From a virus (lineage: Duplodnaviria; Caudoviricetes), in the IMG/VR virus record IMGVR_UViG_3300020450_000008: a DNA stretch of 64,000 nucleotides; one strand, given 5' to 3'. The notes beneath the pieces are model-generated. The model saw nothing but the letters and a program-made list of their open reading frames with translations, had not been told where the DNA came from and ran no database searches. Numbering within the stretch: position 1 is the stretch's first letter; every line of letters starts with the position of its first letter. Shown here in pieces: positions 36,038 through 47,037 of the stretch. Both the position numbers and the translations under genes were made by a program.

Positions 36038-36066
36038 TTTACATTTATTCTTTTTTATAGTATATT
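36038..36066 (+). promoter_or_regulatory. Strong early-type promoter (operator-associated class)
   Basis: CGTTTACA-17 nt-TATATT, then AGTTATATAAGG. Confidence 0.75.
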
Positions 36067-36877: not shown

Positions 36878-37268
36878 TAAAGTTCCAAAGAAACTTGGTT
36901 CAGATACTTTAAACAAAGTATTGGACTTTGCTGAAAAATATCTAAAGTTAAATCCAAAATTAGATATTCATATTGACTTTATAAAAACTAAAAAGTTTCT
37001 AGGTCAATATGAAGGCATTGATGAACATGGTGAAACACACTTTATAGATATAAATGAAACTCAAAGTCAAGAAGACATTATTAGATCTATATTTCATGAG
37101 TTAGTTCATGTAAGACAGACTGATGATGGAGATCTATCATTAGATGGAAATAGTTGGAAAGGCTTTTTGTATAGAACTAAAGAAATGGAAGTAGACTATG
37201 ATCATCTTCCATGGGAAAAAGAAGCGGCTGAATTAGAAGAAACAATGTGGAGAACTTGGAATGCCTGA
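36861..37268 (+). CDS. Zn metallopeptidase-like protein (HExxH)
   Basis: IFHELVHVRQ, YDHLPWEKEA. Confidence 0.75.
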   Translation: MLLSVNKVPKKLGSDTLNKVLDFAEKYLKLNPKLDIHIDFIKTKKFLGQYEGIDEHGETHFIDINETQSQEDIIRSIFHELVHVRQTDDGDLSLDGNSWKGFLYRTKEMEVDYDHLPWEKEAAELEETMWRTWNA

Positions 37269-37989
37269 AACATTTATGGAGTTTGATTCTTCCTGGCATA
37301 AAGAATATAAATCAGAAGAAGACTTTCAATGCTGGGATGCTTATCCAGAATACCGATGGTTGTTTAATAAGCTTGAAGTTTCTATGAAACTAGGATATGA
37401 TTGTGGGCCTGCAGGAGTTCCTATAACTAAAGCTGGTAACTATATTATACGACCAACATATAATTTATATGGTATGGGCATAGGTGCGCATAAGAAGTAT
37501 CTAGACCCTGATAAGCATGGTGACGATATGGTTCATCACAAACATATTCCTCCTGGATATTTTTGGTGTGAATGGATTACTGGAAAACATCATAGTATTG
37601 ATTTTATGAAACAAGACGACAAATGGGTTCCTTTTAGCGCAATGATAGGTCATCATTATGGAGAAGACAATCTTGTAAAATTTAAAGAATGGGAAGTCAT
37701 AGAACCGGAATTTGAGTTACCAGATTGGCTTCATTCTGTAGAAACTGAAAGATATTTAAATATTGAAAGCAAAGATGATAAGATCATAGAAGTACATCTA
37801 AGAAGTGGTAATGATCATATATGGAATCTTAATGTAGGTTCTAAAGTATATCCAGTATGGGAAGGTGATGATTATAAAGAACTTGAACACCTTGAATTTG
37901 TAGGAAATATGCATTCAGAATCATTTAAATATCAGGCTGATGGGCATTTATCTGATTTAAGATTAGGTTACTATATAGATTCTGTATAA
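37261..37989 (+). CDS. Conserved phage hypothetical (possible ATP-grasp-like fold)
   Basis: YIIRPTYNLYGMG, YFWCEW..GKHHSIDF, IIEVHLR. Confidence 0.55.
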   Translation: MPETFMEFDSSWHKEYKSEEDFQCWDAYPEYRWLFNKLEVSMKLGYDCGPAGVPITKAGNYIIRPTYNLYGMGIGAHKKYLDPDKHGDDMVHHKHIPPGYFWCEWITGKHHSIDFMKQDDKWVPFSAMIGHHYGEDNLVKFKEWEVIEPEFELPDWLHSVETERYLNIESKDDKIIEVHLRSGNDHIWNLNVGSKVYPVWEGDDYKELEHLEFVGNMHSESFKYQADGHLSDLRLGYYIDSV

Positions 37990-37992
37990 ATA
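37985..37992 (+). promoter_or_regulatory. T4 late promoter
   Basis: TATAAATA 5 nt before ATG 37998. Confidence 0.65.
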
Positions 37993-37997
37993 GACTT

Positions 37998-38519
37998 ATG
38001 TTAACATTTAAAACATATTTAAGAGAATCATATACTAATTGGAAACATGAAGAGCCAGTAAAGTATTCTAAGCATCTCGAAAAAACATTTGGTAAACCAG
38101 ATGAAATTACCGATAGTCAAACTATTTGGTATAATAAAGATGGTTTTAAAAGAATAGTCGTTAAAGACGAATATATTCTACACGCTTCACCTGCTCCACA
38201 TTATGACTTTGTATATTGTTACGTTGATTTACAAGTGCCAGAAGAAATGGCAACAGATCTTGCTAAATCAAGTGGCAGTATCATGATTGACTTCTTAAAA
38301 GGGGAAGTTGGAGCAAGATGCTCTTCTACTACAGCCAATGCAACTACAATAAACTATTGTTTAGATGTTGTATCAGGTAGAGTCAAGCCTTCAAAAGCTG
38401 AGTATGAAAAAAGAATACTTGGAATGAAGAAGATGTTTTCTACTGGCAAAAAGTATGAACTTGATTGGTGGCCTGACGAAACAAGTGACGCTGATCCTAA
38501 GAATCCATACTACAAATGA
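37998..38519 (+). CDS. Late protein, candidate capsid internal protein
   Basis: N-terminus MLTFKTYLRE resembles the T4 capsid-targeting sequence. Confidence 0.6.
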   Translation: MLTFKTYLRESYTNWKHEEPVKYSKHLEKTFGKPDEITDSQTIWYNKDGFKRIVVKDEYILHASPAPHYDFVYCYVDLQVPEEMATDLAKSSGSIMIDFLKGEVGARCSSTTANATTINYCLDVVSGRVKPSKAEYEKRILGMKKMFSTGKKYELDWWPDETSDADPKNPYYK

Positions 38520-38836
38520 TTTTCAAATTCAAGCAGTTTATTGACCTAGAAGAAAACTCTAAGTGTCCTCCAGGATACAAATATGATCCTGAGTTAAAGA
38601 TGTGTATCGATAAAAATTACAAAAGATCAGTAATGTATAGACCATACTTTGGTAGATACTTAAGTACACAGCAGCCAAAACAAGAACAACCACCAAAGAA
38701 AAATGGTAATGGAAATGGAAATGGCAGTCCAAAAAATGGCAATGGCAATAATGGCAATGGAAATGGTGGGAACGGCAACGGGAACGGTGGTGGTAATGGC
38801 GGAGGAGCCGGCGGCGGAAATGGCGCAGGTGCTTAA
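38516..38836 (+). CDS. Late protein with Asn-Gly low-complexity tail, candidate capsid internal protein
   Basis: [14 protein letters not shown]-terminus; [12 protein letters not shown]; (NG)n tail. Confidence 0.6.
38701..38833 (+). repeat. Degenerate (AAY GGN)n coding repeat (Asn-Gly/Gly runs)
   Basis: aatggtaatggaaatggaaatggc...ggcaatggcaataatggcaatggaaatggtggg... Confidence 0.8.
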
Positions 38837-38841
38837 ATGAT

Positions 38842-39339
38842 ATGCATGAAGAACTTCCAGAAATAAGTCTCGCAGGAGCGAACAATAAAGGTTATATACT
38901 TTCAACCGTTGAAGATGTTATCAACTGGTCAAGAACAGGCAGTCTTTATTGGATGACATTCGGTCTAGCATGTTGTGCTGTTGAAATGATGCATGCTTCG
39001 ACTCCGAGATATGATCTTGAAAGATTTGGATCTATTCCAAGAGGTAGTCCTAGACAATCAGATCTCATGATTGTTGCTGGAACTCTTACAAATAAAATGG
39101 CACCAGCTTTAAGAAAAGTTTACGATCAAATGCCTGAGCCAAGATATGTAATATCAATGGGAAGTTGTGCAAATGGTGGTGGGTATTACCATTATTCTTA
39201 TTCTGTAGTAAGAGGCTGTGATAGAATAATTCCAGTGGATATATATGTTCCAGGTTGCCCACCAAGTGCAGAAGCTTTATTATATGGAATATTACAGCTA
39301 CAAAAAAAGATTAGAAGAACTGGAACCATAAAGCGATGA
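38842..39339 (+). CDS. nuoB: NADH-quinone oxidoreductase subunit B (complex I PSST/Nqo6)
   Basis: [87 protein letters not shown]. Confidence 0.97.
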
Positions 39340-40571
39340 TAAATTATTTAGCATTTATAGCTGCTATCGCTATAGCAACAGTTGCAGCATATTATTCAAT
39401 TATTGGATTGATGACAATTTTTGCAGCTGCTGCAATACCTATTGCTGTGATGGGTGGTGTACTTGAAGCTGGAAAGCTTATAACTGCCTCATGGTTATAT
39501 AATAACCGAAAAATAATTCCTTTCTTTTTAAAATCATATCTTATAACTGCCGTTGTAGTTCTTATGTTTATTACAAGCATGGGAATCTTTGGATTCTTAT
39601 CAAAAGCACATATTGAACAAACAGCAGAATCAGAAGAGAATGTCGCTAAGATGGAACAGATCGATAAAAAGATTGTTCGTCTTACAGATACAATTATGGC
39701 ATCTGAACAAGCAATAATTAAGATTGAAACCAAAGATGAAAATAAGAATGAACAAATAAACTTTCAGATTCAAACTGAAGAAGAAAGAATCGTAAAAGTT
39801 AGAGATCAGTATCAAAAATTAGTTGATGAACAAGATAAGATAATTAATAGTGCATCTGACAATTTAGATTTACTGGAGCAATTTGTAAAGGATAAAGACA
39901 CTCGATCTTTGCAAGCCTTAGTAGGAACTAAAGTTGATGGTGTATATGGTCCAGGAACTGCGGCAAGAGTAAATGAATATAGAGAAAAAGAAGAATCTAA
40001 AGTAGATCAAATTATTGCTGATGCAAGAAAAAGGATAACTAATCTTAGAGAAAGAGAACTTACTGAAATCTCTAAGAGTAATGAACTTATTGATAGACTA
40101 CGAAATAATATTAATACAGATGAACTGGATGAAGTTGCTACTAACAGGATCAAAAATTTACAAAACACTATAATCGAATCAGAAGAATCAATAACTAATC
40201 TTAATGTTGAAAAGTTTAAGTTAGAAGCAGAAGAAAGAAAATTAGAGGCTGAAGTCGGTCCAATTAAATACATTGCTGAACTAGTATATAGTGGAGAAGC
40301 AGATAGAGATGTATTAGAAGATGCTGTACGATGGGTAATACTAATTATCATATTTGTATTTGATCCATTGGCCGTTTTATTATTGATTGCTGCCAATATT
40401 GGTTGGGAAAAAGAAAGAGAAGAAAAAATTAAAAAGATTGGAAGATCCGAAAACAGAGTTGCTAAAGACGGAAAACTAGTTGATGCAGTAAAAATAGATG
40501 AAGAAGAAAAAGTACCCCCACAGAAAAAGTTAACTGTAAAAGCTGGTACAGAATGGTTTACTGATAAATAG
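39336..40571 (+). CDS. Conserved membrane-anchored coiled-coil protein
   Basis: Three N-terminal TM helices, long coiled coil with an internal VDGVYGPGT (PG-binding-like) motif, C-terminal TM ([12 protein letters not shown]). Confidence 0.7.
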
Positions 40572-40594
40572 AACTAGGTAAAACGGAGTAACTC

Positions 40595-41398
40595 ATGATA
40601 TCAGAAATGTCATTCCAAGAAAGAGCAACATTGTTTGCAACACTATCATCTATAGCATATATGGATAAAAAAGGTGCTAAAAAGGCAGCAAAGAAAATAG
40701 GATTTACCACTGTTGAGTTTTACAATAGAGATGGAGCTCAAGCATATCGATTTATGAATTCAGAAGACTTGGTGATTGCATGTAGAGGAACACAACCTAC
40801 TGAATGGAATGATATAAAAGCTGATCTAAGAGCCATACCAGTTTATGCCGAAACTATAGGTTTGGTTCATAAAGGTTTTAAAAAAGAAGTTGACGATCTG
40901 TGGCCTATGGTGTTAGAAGATCTTGAGAGAAAAGTAAATCAAGACAAAAAAGTATGGTTTACAGGACATAGTTTAGGAGCCGCAATGACAACTATTATGG
41001 CTAGTCGTTGTCAAGATGTTCATCATAATGTTTGTGAAGTGTATACCTATGGATCGCCAAGAGTTGGCTGGGGAAGATATGTTAGAAGTTTAAAGGTTAC
41101 ACATCATAGGTTTGTAAATAACAATGATATAGTAACTCGAGTTCCTTTATGGATTATGGGTTATAGACATCATGGAAGAAGACATTACTTTAATAGAAAA
41201 GGACAACTTAGCTTCTCTGATATAAGAGATAGAATTTTAGGAATGTGGGACGGTTGGAAAAGAGGAAGAATTGATTCTATAGCAGATCATGACATAGGTC
41301 AATATATTGTCCATTGCGAAGATATACCAGCTCATAAAGAAATAAGACACAAAATGGGTGTATGGTCTAAGTTTAAAAAGCGGTCTACAAGAAAGTAA
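40595..41398 (+). CDS. Lipase class 3 (alpha/beta hydrolase)
   Basis: VIACRGT, VHKGF, FTGHSLGAA nucleophile elbow, YTYGSPRVG, RFVNNNDIVTRVP, DH. Confidence 0.92.
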   Translation: MISEMSFQERATLFATLSSIAYMDKKGAKKAAKKIGFTTVEFYNRDGAQAYRFMNSEDLVIACRGTQPTEWNDIKADLRAIPVYAETIGLVHKGFKKEVDDLWPMVLEDLERKVNQDKKVWFTGHSLGAAMTTIMASRCQDVHHNVCEVYTYGSPRVGWGRYVRSLKVTHHRFVNNNDIVTRVPLWIMGYRHHGRRHYFNRKGQLSFSDIRDRILGMWDGWKRGRIDSIADHDIGQYIVHCEDIPAHKEIRHKMGVWSKFKKRSTRK

Positions 41399-41580
41399 TG
41401 AAAGAATTGGTTTTTATATTAATGGTTATGAATGGCGATCAACTTGAAGGTGAGATAGTTTATCCAAACATGGATAAATGTAAATGGTATGCTGAAAAAA
41501 TTAATAAACAACAAACAAGTTTAATTCTTAATTATTCAGCATGGTGCAAACCAGTAGTAAGAGATAAGGTGGAAGAATAA
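41398..41580 (+). CDS. Hypothetical protein
   Basis: TAATG coupling; two Cys. Confidence 0.6.
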   Translation: MKELVFILMVMNGDQLEGEIVYPNMDKCKWYAEKINKQQTSLILNYSAWCKPVVRDKVEE

Positions 41581-41681
41581 TGCCTTGGCCACAAAAGAAT
41601 AAACCGAGAACCGGAAGAAGAAAGATTGGATCGACAAAAAGAGCTAATAGAAGAAAAAATAGAAAACAAGGAAAAAAGTAG
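41580..41681 (+). CDS. Very basic small peptide (33 aa)
   Basis: TAATG coupling; MPWPQKNKPRTGRRKIGSTKRANRRKNRKQGKK. Confidence 0.5.
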   Translation: MPWPQKNKPRTGRRKIGSTKRANRRKNRKQGKK

Positions 41682-42302: not shown

Positions 42303-42563
42303 ATGCAAATAGGAAACGTAACTAATCAATATATTAACACTTATAATAATACAGCACAAGTTCAGGTAGCCAATCAGCAGCAAGAAACAAGAGCGGCAGA
42401 AAAGCTATCAGAACAACAGTTGATGGAATACAATCAACAGATGTATAGAGAGCAACAAAGATGGCTCGCTTATATAATGATGATGCAGTTCTTTGCAAGA
42501 GAGAATATGTGGTCATTATTGAATCAAATGAGAATACAAAGGACACTTGATTTAACTGCTTAA
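42303..42563 (+). CDS. Gln-rich hypothetical protein
   Basis: SD AGGAGG. Confidence 0.65.
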   Translation: MQIGNVTNQYINTYNNTAQVQVANQQQETRAAEKLSEQQLMEYNQQMYREQQRWLAYIMMMQFFARENMWSLLNQMRIQRTLDLTA

Positions 42564-42942: not shown

Positions 42943-43392
42943 ATGGGTATGGGCATGCACGGAAATAATCATCCTCAGGGAAAGAGGACAGTCATTCTTA
43001 TGGTCGTCTTATGTCTATTTCTACACTTTCTTCTTATTCCTATTTGGATGGGATTAGTATTTGCTAATGCGCATGAATCAAATTCTTTTTTAAAAGGACC
43101 TATGTACACTAAAGTTGTTACCTGTGATACATTTGACAATATAACACAAAAAATGGTACTAGTTAATCAGTTTCCTTTCCTTTGGGCTGATGGGAATAGT
43201 TTAAGACCAGATGGAAACCCGTTAGACTCTACATTCATAATAGCATATGATAATAAAGAAAAAAAATGGACTATATTGGAAACATTTACAGGACCAACTG
43301 GAGCACTTATAGCATGTATATTAGGTGAAGGCAATAAAAAAATTAATATTAATCCTGAAATATTATTACCAATACCAGGAACAGACTTATGA
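42943..43392 (+). CDS. Hypothetical exported/membrane protein
   Basis: Hydrophobic segment followed by AHE; two Cys. Confidence 0.6.
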   Translation: MGMGMHGNNHPQGKRTVILMVVLCLFLHFLLIPIWMGLVFANAHESNSFLKGPMYTKVVTCDTFDNITQKMVLVNQFPFLWADGNSLRPDGNPLDSTFIIAYDNKEKKWTILETFTGPTGALIACILGEGNKKININPEILLPIPGTDL

Positions 43393-43616
43393 TAGATTAT
43401 CCAGATGGATTTTCAAATGAATGGCGCGAATATACAATGAAAGATAAAGATTTTCCAGAAACTATTATATATACAGATAAGGAGCGAATAGCTTGTACGG
43501 GCGAAGCTAATGATCACCCTCGAGTATATTATACTGTTCCGGAAGTAGGTTTTGTAGTATGCGGGTATTGTGACATTAAATTTGCAAGGAAAAAGCCTGA
43601 TGAACTCAGTGGATAG
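43389..43616 (+). CDS. zf-CHCC zinc-finger protein (NDUFS6/NUMM-like)
   Basis: IACTGEANDHPRVYY...VVCGYCDIKF: C...H...CxxC pattern with HPRVY. Confidence 0.85.
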   Translation: MIDYPDGFSNEWREYTMKDKDFPETIIYTDKERIACTGEANDHPRVYYTVPEVGFVVCGYCDIKFARKKPDELSG

Positions 43617-43969: not shown

Positions 43970-44172
43970 CTGGATTTGAAATATTTACAATTATATGTTT
44001 TATCGCTACTATAGTGATTGTGCCTGTTTATATGTGGTTACTATACAATATTAAAAACTCTTGGACATCTAATTCACATGATACTCAAGGTGGTAGTATG
44101 ACAATACTTGAAGGAGATGATCAGCCAAAAGTAACTTGGATGGATCCCTTAATTAAAAAAATCAAGAAGTAA
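43966..44172 (+). CDS. Hypothetical membrane protein
   Basis: N-terminal TM helix. Confidence 0.6.
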   Translation: MTGFEIFTIICFIATIVIVPVYMWLLYNIKNSWTSNSHDTQGGSMTILEGDDQPKVTWMDPLIKKIKK

Positions 44173-44900
44173 TGACAACCTTTATATCCGCTCCGTTCGG
44201 AAACTATCTTAAATTTAAGAATGCTGTAAGTGTGACTGGTACTTGGACATATAAACCGAGACCAGGACTATTCAAACAAGTTGTAAAGACATTAAGATAT
44301 ACTAGAAATGGTTGGCGTAATAAAATAGGTTTAAGAAATCGTGGAATAGAGTATGGCATACAAAAAACTAACTTTAATGAAGTTTTAAGTATTGCTGCGA
44401 TAAGTGAACACGATTGGATAAATTTAGAATCAATAGTTCCACAAAGCCAAAGTGTTGAGTTAAATATTAGTTGTCCTAATCTTGATACTCATCAAGATAC
44501 TACAATGTTCAATGGATTTGATTTATGGCCAACTAAACATAGGAAATGGTGTATTGTTAAAGTTCCACCAACCGCATCATTTGCACTACTAGATAGTATA
44601 GTGAGACAAGGATTTACACAGATTCATGCCAGTAATACATTACCGACTGAAAAAGGTGGTTTAAGTGGAGCCATATTGCTACCACATACTCGAAGAATAA
44701 TTAAACACCTGAAAACTGAATATGGCCATGTAGAAGTTATTGCTGGTGGTGGAATCAAAGAAGCATGGCATGCTGAATTTTATAAAGATTTAGGTGCAGA
44801 TCATTTTAGTATCGGCACCGCTTGTTTTAATCCCTTTAAAGTATGGAGAACAGTGAATGAGATTAATGGAGACCCTTCGTTCGGAGTACATCAAACCTAG
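44172..44900 (+). CDS. Dihydroorotate dehydrogenase-like flavoprotein (short form)
   Basis: ISAPFG, RNKIGLRNRG, ELNISCPN (catalytic Cys), VKVPP, ASNTL..GGLSG, IAGGGI, GADHFSIGT. Confidence 0.8.
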   Translation: MTTFISAPFGNYLKFKNAVSVTGTWTYKPRPGLFKQVVKTLRYTRNGWRNKIGLRNRGIEYGIQKTNFNEVLSIAAISEHDWINLESIVPQSQSVELNISCPNLDTHQDTTMFNGFDLWPTKHRKWCIVKVPPTASFALLDSIVRQGFTQIHASNTLPTEKGGLSGAILLPHTRRIIKHLKTEYGHVEVIAGGGIKEAWHAEFYKDLGADHFSIGTACFNPFKVWRTVNEINGDPSFGVHQT

Positions 44901-46797: not shown

Positions 46798-47037
46798 ATG
46801 AGTAGTGATCCAAGAGAACCTGCAAGAGAGCAGGCTGAAGAAGCCTATCACGGTTTTATAAATTTTACAAAGTACTTTGCATATATAGCTTTAGCTGGCG
46901 TTGTTTTTGTTAGCAGCTGTAACTTCGGTGTAGATGGTACTGGAAGTAAGAGTGATCCAAGTTACTATGAAGACTACAAAGAGCGAATGGAAGAAATGAA
47001 AGAAGAAATAAAGAAGAGAAAGTATGGTGAAACTTAG
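46798..47037 (+). CDS. Single-TM protein resembling aa3-type cytochrome c oxidase subunit IV
   Basis: EQAEEAYHGFINFTKYFAYIALAGVVFV resembles the 'xxTYxGFxxxTKW + TM' pattern of alphaproteobacterial CtaH/CoxIV. Confidence 0.45.
   Translation: MSSDPREPAREQAEEAYHGFINFTKYFAYIALAGVVFVSSCNFGVDGTGSKSDPSYYEDYKERMEEMKEEIKKRKYGET

Follow-up and report, generated by a model that had tools for sequence, protein, structure and literature searches.

The Locus and Its Viral Context

The window considered here, i.e., the whole stretch of 64,000 nucleotides held in the IMG/VR record IMGVR_UViG_3300020450_000008, represents a T4-like myovirus with genes for a gp32-type SSB (376 bits), a baseplate hub, and a tail tube. 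A gp2-like end protector, a gp48-like tube cap, baseplate wedge proteins, an endolysin, and a class II ribonucleotide reductase are encoded there as well, and the G+C content stays at 34% throughout. This genome harbors nuoB, a gene for a subunit of respiratory complex I (Table 1), which is found outside any nuo operon and is flanked by phage genes. The stop of the upstream ORF at 38836 and the start of nuoB at 38842 confirm the 5-nt spacer of the original prediction. The phage type of the flanking genes, claimed there too, is borne out by the downstream product, whose best cultured match is found in the Pelagibacter myophage Mosig (63%). When NuoA, C, D, E, F, and G of the closest cellular genome were used as tblastn queries, no homologues were returned elsewhere in the 64-kb window. 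The gene was also described as an orphan, which holds insofar as there is no other nuo gene in the 64 kb but not for complex I-type genes in a broader sense, a second one (zf-CHCC/NDUFS6-like, see below) being located 4 kb downstream.

Table 1. Features of the nuoB locus and its surroundings (positions in the 64-kb window).
Feature	Position	Strand	Remarks
Sigma-70-type promoter-like site	36038..36066	+	TTTACA, 17 nt, TATATT; consensus match only
TATAAATA, T4 late-promoter-like motif	37985..37992	+	850 nt upstream of nuoB, directly before ORF 37998
106-aa Gly/Asn-rich phage ORF	38516..38836	+	Ends 5 nt 5' of nuoB
nuoB	38842..39339	+	165-aa NuoB/Nqo6/NDUFS7-type subunit; profile and structure matches
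411-aa membrane/coiled-coil phage protein	39336..40571	+	Start overlaps nuoB stop (ATGA at 39336)
75-aa zf-CHCC protein	43389..43616	+	PF10276, 42 bits (cut-off 27); 4 kb downstream of nuoB, next transcription unit

The 106-aa ORF preceding nuoB is retained in most variants of the phage; in the variant L001, other genes replace it. The C-terminal half of its product is a Gly/Asn repeat, which is length-polymorphic, since the contig of one sequencing run skips 113 nt within it (38695–38809) and the variants differ in length. The 411-aa product of the gene following nuoB comprises N-terminal membrane helices, a long coiled coil, and a peptidoglycan-binding-like stretch, and it is common to the pelagimyophage Mosig and to jumbo phages of Xanthomonas, Stenotrophomonas, and Salicola. 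This downstream gene is present also in relatives whose locus lacks nuoB (L146 and L147, 73% identity of the downstream gene). Hence, it indicates where nuoB was inserted rather than being a partner of it, and nuoB itself is dispensable, as the close relatives possess the locus without it. In L001 (94% amino acid identity of NuoB), the upstream genes are different and nuoB again directly precedes the same downstream gene position. Overall, nuoB is an accessory gene of one phage sub-lineage, residing in a variable region.

The gene run containing nuoB is headed by the sigma-70-type promoter-like site, and there is no terminator-like site on the + strand between this site and nuoB. The 29-nt motif of the site is kept 5' of nuoB in L003, L005, and also in L001, where the intervening genes are different. 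The assignment of nuoB to a late operon is not supported: its sole basis is a single TATAAATA situated 850 nt upstream, and this motif shows no excess in the window over shuffled sequences (10 found vs. 11.9 expected). In L001, the motif ATAAATA sits just 5' of nuoB. With an unenriched late-type motif 850 nt away and a conserved sigma-70-type site at the head of the unit, transcription of nuoB may be early, late, or both.

As for the expression data, contigs of RNA-labelled libraries cover nuoB together with its upstream junction, the three libraries whose contigs span this junction possibly being DNA. In the true metatranscriptome, the peak of depth at 38970–39276 stems mostly from contigs 90–95% alike, i.e., from nuoB of other organisms. 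The same run includes contigs identical to the phage-specific flanks at 38273–38546, 41437–41616, and 42404–42559, which may also represent DNA carry-over. The RNA shares are small.

Features of the Phage-Encoded NuoB

In complex I, NuoB bears the Fe–S cluster N2, the last electron donor to quinone. The predicted presence of a near full-length, host-like NuoB at this locus is corroborated by the agreement of the ORF, the profile scores, and the alignment to a complex I chain of known structure. Thus, the protein matches the full domain of Pfam PF01058 (Oxidored_q6; 101 bits at a cut-off of 27, profile positions 1–128) as well as NCBIfam NF005012 (268 bits, cut-off 116) and TIGR01957 (245 bits, cut-off 143); no PHROG family matches it. 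Its best match among the solved structures is the complex I chain 8qby_B (NuoB/Nqo6, 311 bits) of Paracoccus denitrificans, to which residues 14–165 of the phage protein align gap-free over 152 residues (24–175 of the chain); the identity to the Paracoccus subunit amounts to 86%. The next structure matches are mitochondrial NDUFS7 chains (~278 bits).

The four ligands of the N2 cluster, C44 and C45 (tandem CC), C109 (GSC), and C139 (GCPP), are all present, as the original prediction had it, and are invariant in the alignment with cellular NuoBs. The segments CCAVEMMH and PRxSPRQSD are intact, the latter being identical in 8qby_B, and there is no difference between phage and host NuoB at the catalytic and cluster residues. 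R67 of the phage protein is the equivalent of Paracoccus NDUFS7-Arg77 (alignment offset +10). This arginine lies within 4 Å of the partially inserted ubiquinone headgroup in Paracoccus, and its equivalent shifts position on opening of the mammalian complex I (PMC11522691).

Overall, the phage copy has all N2 ligands and quinone-site residues in common with the cellular NuoB/Nqo6/NDUFS7 (PSST; e.g., PDB 8QBY chain B) but differs in being virus-encoded, in its location outside a nuo operon, in five lineage-specific substitutions (see below), and in its N-terminus, which is ~10 residues shorter than that of the 175–177-aa cellular forms. The missing N-terminal stretch is variable among hosts. A related peculiarity of the database records is the “MEERGxGxG” start of many cellular NuoBs called as 184-aa proteins: it falls in the 31-nt overlap with nuoA (L002:6001-6031), and the “MEERG” start is missing in the 175-residue Paracoccus chain of 8qby. 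Judging from these sequences, this N-terminus is probably a systematically over-extended gene call.

Recurrence and Selection

The identical NuoB protein is recorded in 63 blocks of the assembly collection. In all six places listed, which come from six assemblies including Tara Oceans, the same phage genes are found on both sides of nuoB, and the contigs bearing it reach 178.6 kb among these places. The possibility of a chimeric assembly, named in the original prediction as a ground for refuting it, is excluded by these records. At the same time, none of the eight NuoB matches among the GenBank “phage” records exceeds 57% identity to the window protein, and the one inspected was rejected as a phage gene, being part of a cellular nuoA-B-CD-E-F operon labelled as phage.

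The comparison of the window nuoB with that of L001 yielded 87% identity for DNA and 94% for protein, with dN 0.047, dS 0.63, and dN/dS 0.075 as computed over the 153-codon core. Two further phage variants differ from the window nuoB synonymously only (dS 0.05 and 0.08). In L005 and L008, the protein is 100% identical to that of the window while the flanking proteins (window 37261–41398) are 88–95% identical. NuoB is the slowest-evolving gene of its neighborhood. Between phage and host, nuoB is 77% identical in DNA and 94% in protein, the synonymous sites being saturated, and no copy has a disrupted reading frame. Such a combination of divergent DNA with a conserved protein, at a dN/dS of 0.07, shows that the gene is old in the phage and is under strong purifying selection. 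A ratio near 1, another observation that was to count against the prediction, is thus far from the value of about 0.07 found between the phage variants. The G+C content of the phage nuoB (37.8%) lies between those of the host nuoB (43.4%) and of the phage (33.8%), i.e., it is partly ameliorated towards the phage value.

Five core positions (S21, E24, A52, T54, and S64) are fixed differently in the phage, i.e., in 5/5 phage variants as compared with 113 host-clade sequences. None of the substitutions is at an N2 ligand. A52, T54, and S64 are found within 13 residues, after the tandem cysteines and before R67, next to the quinone cavity. The same five positions, however, vary among ordinary alphaproteobacterial NuoBs as well, so the substitutions are no proof of an altered function. 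The near invariance of the C-terminal two thirds of NuoB across alphaproteobacteria by itself confines most changes to residues 21–64. Since the fixed differences are only five and spare the ligands, the interfaces with the host subunits should fit.

Origin of the Gene and the Probable Host

The search of 5.8 billion proteins revealed hundreds of cellular NuoBs of 177–184 aa with 92–94% identity to the phage protein, along with a handful of shorter forms (165–170 aa, 94–97%). In the maximum likelihood tree, the window protein and the short forms constitute a clade (100/99) nested in a clade of cellular NuoBs (100/99), and this cellular clade stands apart from Pelagibacteraceae. The same union of the phage (V1) and cellular (H1) forms was recovered in a second tree with a branch support of 100. 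Hence, the phylogenetic check proposed along with the original prediction turned out positive: the phage copies nest in an alphaproteobacterial cellular clade, and a donor clade was found. Viral genes on both sides, nesting in a cellular clade, and purifying selection likewise speak for an auxiliary metabolic gene; nuoB is a genuine phage-carried, host-derived respiratory gene.

In one cellular member of the donor clade, which comprises relatives of the assembly GCA_902537215.1, the gene belongs to a nuoA-B-C-D-E-F-G operon; the contig is 214 kb long and the genome 2.1 Mb. In the tree of concatenated NuoC and NuoD, the donor-clade genome occupies a long branch inside a set of Paracoccaceae and Roseobacteraceae; the starred set in this tree is made up only of these two families and unlabelled rows. 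The genomes of the donor's family are mostly of 3–5 Mb, and the best nucleotide matches to the phage nuoB come from its few 2.1–2.6-Mb members. No member of the donor clade was encountered among 400 sampled alphaproteobacterial species (best match 87%); one of these genomes is flagged as unpublished and underlies none of the claims made here. On the strength of the NuoC and NuoD tree and of the genome-size pattern in the family, the donor is a streamlined, AT-rich Rhodobacterales (roseobacter-type) lineage and not SAR11. Its genome size and G+C content allow for a guess that it belongs to a known pelagic roseobacter group such as NAC11-7. A small-genome Rhodobacterales bacterium is therefore the probable host, as deduced from the donor only; the structural kin of the phage, which are pelagimyophage-like (see the Mosig match above), count against this deduction.

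NuoB in Other Viral Contigs

A second lineage of NuoB in IMG/VR (L012–L015) is represented by proteins of 168 aa, ~77–80% identical to the window protein, whose genes display a dN of 0 at a dS of 0.52 within the lineage. The free tree placed L012–L015 elsewhere, on a very long branch. An independent acquisition of nuoB by this lineage was considered and set aside: a single clade of V1 and V2 is compatible with the AU test (p 0.52).

One member of this lineage, L015, is a 43.5-kb IMG/VR viral record (IMGVR_UViG_3300020463_002732) with a CheckV completeness of ~12%. It contains, in one run (L015:8819-14566), an uncharacterized 373-aa gene and nuoB, directly followed by the genes for SufB (265 bits), a complete cytochrome b (216 bits), and DHODH (198 bits). 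Genes for a primase, a Dam methylase, and DnaB precede nuoB there, and the DNA polymerase III alpha gene is located on the opposite strand. The same record harbors a 7Fe-type ferredoxin gene directly before another zf-CHCC gene (L107:916-1698); no real match to its cytochrome b was obtained among GenBank phages. In another viral contig (L016:1-4476, IMGVR_UViG_2788500184_000009; G+C 41%), a partial NuoB at the contig edge is followed by a Fer4+DUF3470 ferredoxin (of the 7Fe type, as in L015), a radical-SAM-like gene, and a glutaredoxin. Such gene orders do not correspond to cellular operons and lend support to a theme of redox processes and respiration.

The zf-CHCC Gene and Other Neighbors

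The 75-aa protein encoded downstream of nuoB possesses the four ligands of a zf-CHCC domain (C36, H43, C58, and C61) and matches 8qby_R, the zf-CHCC subunit of Paracoccus complex I (E 2e-5), and the yeast NUMM/NDUFS6 chains (E 5e-5). By these matches, it is homologous to the NDUFS6-type zinc subunit found in alphaproteobacterial and mitochondrial complex I. The domain and its four ligands are common to this subunit (8QBY chain R; NUMM/NDUFS6) and the phage protein, but the latter is only 33% identical to the homologue of the host clade and represents a phage family found mostly without nuoB. Its best PDB matches are two uncharacterized proteins, 2jrr and 2jvm, which stand alone, so a role outside complex I is possible. 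In Paracoccus, the zf-CHCC subunit binds NDUFS1 and NDUFS8 and stabilizes the NADH-oxidizing module, making no contact with NDUFS7 (PMC11522691).

Homologues of the phage zf-CHCC protein (54–78% identity) were found in 28 marine viral contigs of IMG/VR (L117–L144), in none of which NuoB is encoded within 8 kb of the zf-CHCC gene; five of these records, searched whole, contained no match to PF01058. The zf-CHCC gene is thus not specific to nuoB-carrying phages. It is an older and more widespread phage gene, linked to nuoB thematically rather than genetically. Neither a PHROG family nor a GenBank phage protein matches its product, and it represents a common, unstudied phage gene in its own right.

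Two further ORFs of the window deserve mention. A 242-aa protein of the DHO_dh family (44172–44900; 47 bits, short, class-1-like) is encoded 0.6 kb downstream of the zf-CHCC gene and is kept in all close variants. It was discarded as a nuoB-linked gene on account of its weak class-1-like match and the lack of BLAST similarity to the class-2-type DHODH of the other lineage. The ORF at 46798–47037 has no PHROG match.

Proposed Role of the Phage NuoB

With moderate confidence, nuoB is regarded here as a phage auxiliary metabolic gene, kept as a competent NuoB, the product of which is built into the host complex I and sustains respiration. According to this scenario, the gene was captured from a small-genome, AT-rich Rhodobacterales bacterium, the probable host. 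During the infection, the phage NuoB would receive its [4Fe-4S] cluster from the host machinery, join NuoD, NuoC, and NuoI in the quinone module, and dock on NuoH and NuoA, so that any complex I assembled or repaired from then on would include the phage subunit. In this way, NADH oxidation and quinone reduction would go on and the proton-motive force would be maintained while the expression of the host genes declines; the zinc protein of the NDUFS6 type, encoded 4 kb downstream of nuoB, may aid the same task. Expression of the gene, insertion of the cluster, assembly into complex I, and the benefit to the phage are steps that we infer. The replacement of a labile subunit or a tuning of quinone reduction, as the original prediction had it, is likewise putative. 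A single subunit of the quinone module enters complex I only via new assembly or subunit exchange. Still, incorporation into complex I is the simplest reading, since it alone explains why the cluster, quinone-site, and interface residues have been kept at a dN/dS of 0.07, and the saturation of the synonymous sites suggests that this preservation has been long-lasting.

The phage subunit could, instead of maintaining complex I, change its behavior, either by entering the complex or by titrating NuoD, NuoC, or NuoI. The phage-specific residues near the quinone cavity would then affect quinone kinetics, reverse electron transfer, ROS output, or the resting state, or would throttle the enzyme. This takeover of the enzyme seems rather unlikely, although three of the five phage-fixed substitutions (A52, T54, and S64) speak for it by their position after the tandem cysteines and before the counterpart of the mobile NDUFS7-Arg77 (PMC11522691). 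T54 stands where all cellular sequences compared have a hydrophobic residue (I, L, or M), and with a length of 0.37, the stem of the phage clade is long relative to the internal branches of the host. On the other hand, A52 occurs in a SAR11 sequence, position 64 is occupied by A, T, or V elsewhere, and the retention of all ligands and invariant residues at a dN/dS of 0.07 is more than a mere blocker needs. Relatives of NuoB serve as hydrogenase small subunits, and it is conceivable, if improbable, that the phage NuoB functions outside complex I as a free-standing [4Fe-4S] electron-transfer protein partnered by redox proteins of the phage or of the host, e.g., ferredoxin, Fe–S assembly proteins, or the DHO_dh-like enzyme. 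In viral contigs, NuoB is always an orphan, and other viral NuoBs adjoin ferredoxin, SufB, glutaredoxin, and DHODH instead of nuo genes, as such a function would have it. However, the 94% identity to the host subunit preserves surfaces relevant only inside complex I; the window lacks homologues of ferredoxin, SufB, and cytochrome b, and its DHO_dh-like gene, with its weak class-1-like match, is unrelated by BLAST to the DHODH of the other lineage. Hence, a free-standing redox role is less likely than a role in complex I, be it maintenance or a changed behavior.

As to contamination with host DNA, chimerism of the contig, or a recent acquisition that drifts without function, artefacts of this kind are common, as exemplified by the mislabelled cellular nuo operon among the GenBank “phage” matches (all at most 57% identical). 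Yet the same phage junctions occur on both sides in 6/6 places listed, on contigs of up to 178.6 kb, and the upstream junction is also spanned by contigs from other sequencing runs. Together with the saturation of the synonymous sites vs. the host, the dN/dS of 0.07, and the frame intact in all copies, this leaves an artefact or a passenger gene effectively excluded, its probability being minute.

Relation to Known Systems and Significance

Auxiliary metabolic genes of photosynthetic electron transport are textbook cyanophage biology. The products of psbA and psbD (the photosystem II core proteins D1 and D2) are considered to become part of the host complex in infected cells, and the rapid damage-and-replacement cycle of D1 explains the benefit to the cyanophage. 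Like nuoB, these are host-derived genes for a core subunit of a membrane energy-converting complex under purifying selection. The incorporation of the phage protein has been shown for D1, whereas for NuoB we infer it. NuoB is not known as a fast-turnover subunit, so the analogy drawn with psbA in the original prediction is weak at this point.

The closest described cases are the genes for single NDH-1 subunits carried by cyanophages, i.e., ndhI, ndhP (P-TIM68), and ndhD (S-SCSM2R) (PMC12801897); psbA is a looser parallel. In those cases, too, a T4-like marine phage carries one subunit of a complex I-type NAD(P)H:quinone oxidoreductase without the operon, and the genes are read as auxiliary metabolic genes sustaining electron flow in the infected cell (PMC12801897). 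The difference is that the cyanophage genes belong to the photosynthetic NDH-1, whereas the phage NuoB is the NdhK-equivalent of the respiratory, NADH-oxidizing complex I of a heterotrophic alphaproteobacterium. A literature search found no paper naming a phage nuoB or a phage homologue of NDUFS6, and the pelagimyophage survey mentions neither NADH nor nuo in its text and the supplements consulted.

A respiratory-chain equivalent of the photosynthesis genes is essentially undocumented in phages of heterotrophic bacterioplankton, and the phage nuoB represents a clean, recurrent, and selected case of it, from an uncultured phage seen in many ocean metagenomes and with an identifiable donor lineage. 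Few phages of streamlined roseobacters are known, and nuoB provides a concrete host prediction. The five diagnostic residues let mass spectrometry distinguish the viral NuoB from that of the host, and Paracoccus offers a tractable heterologous system. Phages of marine heterotrophs may support or retune the respiration of their hosts, as cyanophages do with photosynthesis genes. With the NDUFS6-like gene, and with NuoB encoded near SufB, cytochrome b, DHODH, and ferredoxin, the question of whether such phages keep respiration going or reshape it is now testable.

A wider generalization is put forward tentatively, as a possibility falling short of the probable: phages of marine heterotrophs may carry a respiratory maintenance kit made up of a virus-adapted NuoB with an altered quinone-side loop and an NDUFS6-type subunit and, elsewhere, of SufB, ferredoxin, cytochrome b, and a quinone-linked DHODH, with which the quinone end of complex I and the quinone pool would be rebuilt or retuned. 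If this is true, a measurable share of ocean respiration would proceed via virus-encoded subunits.
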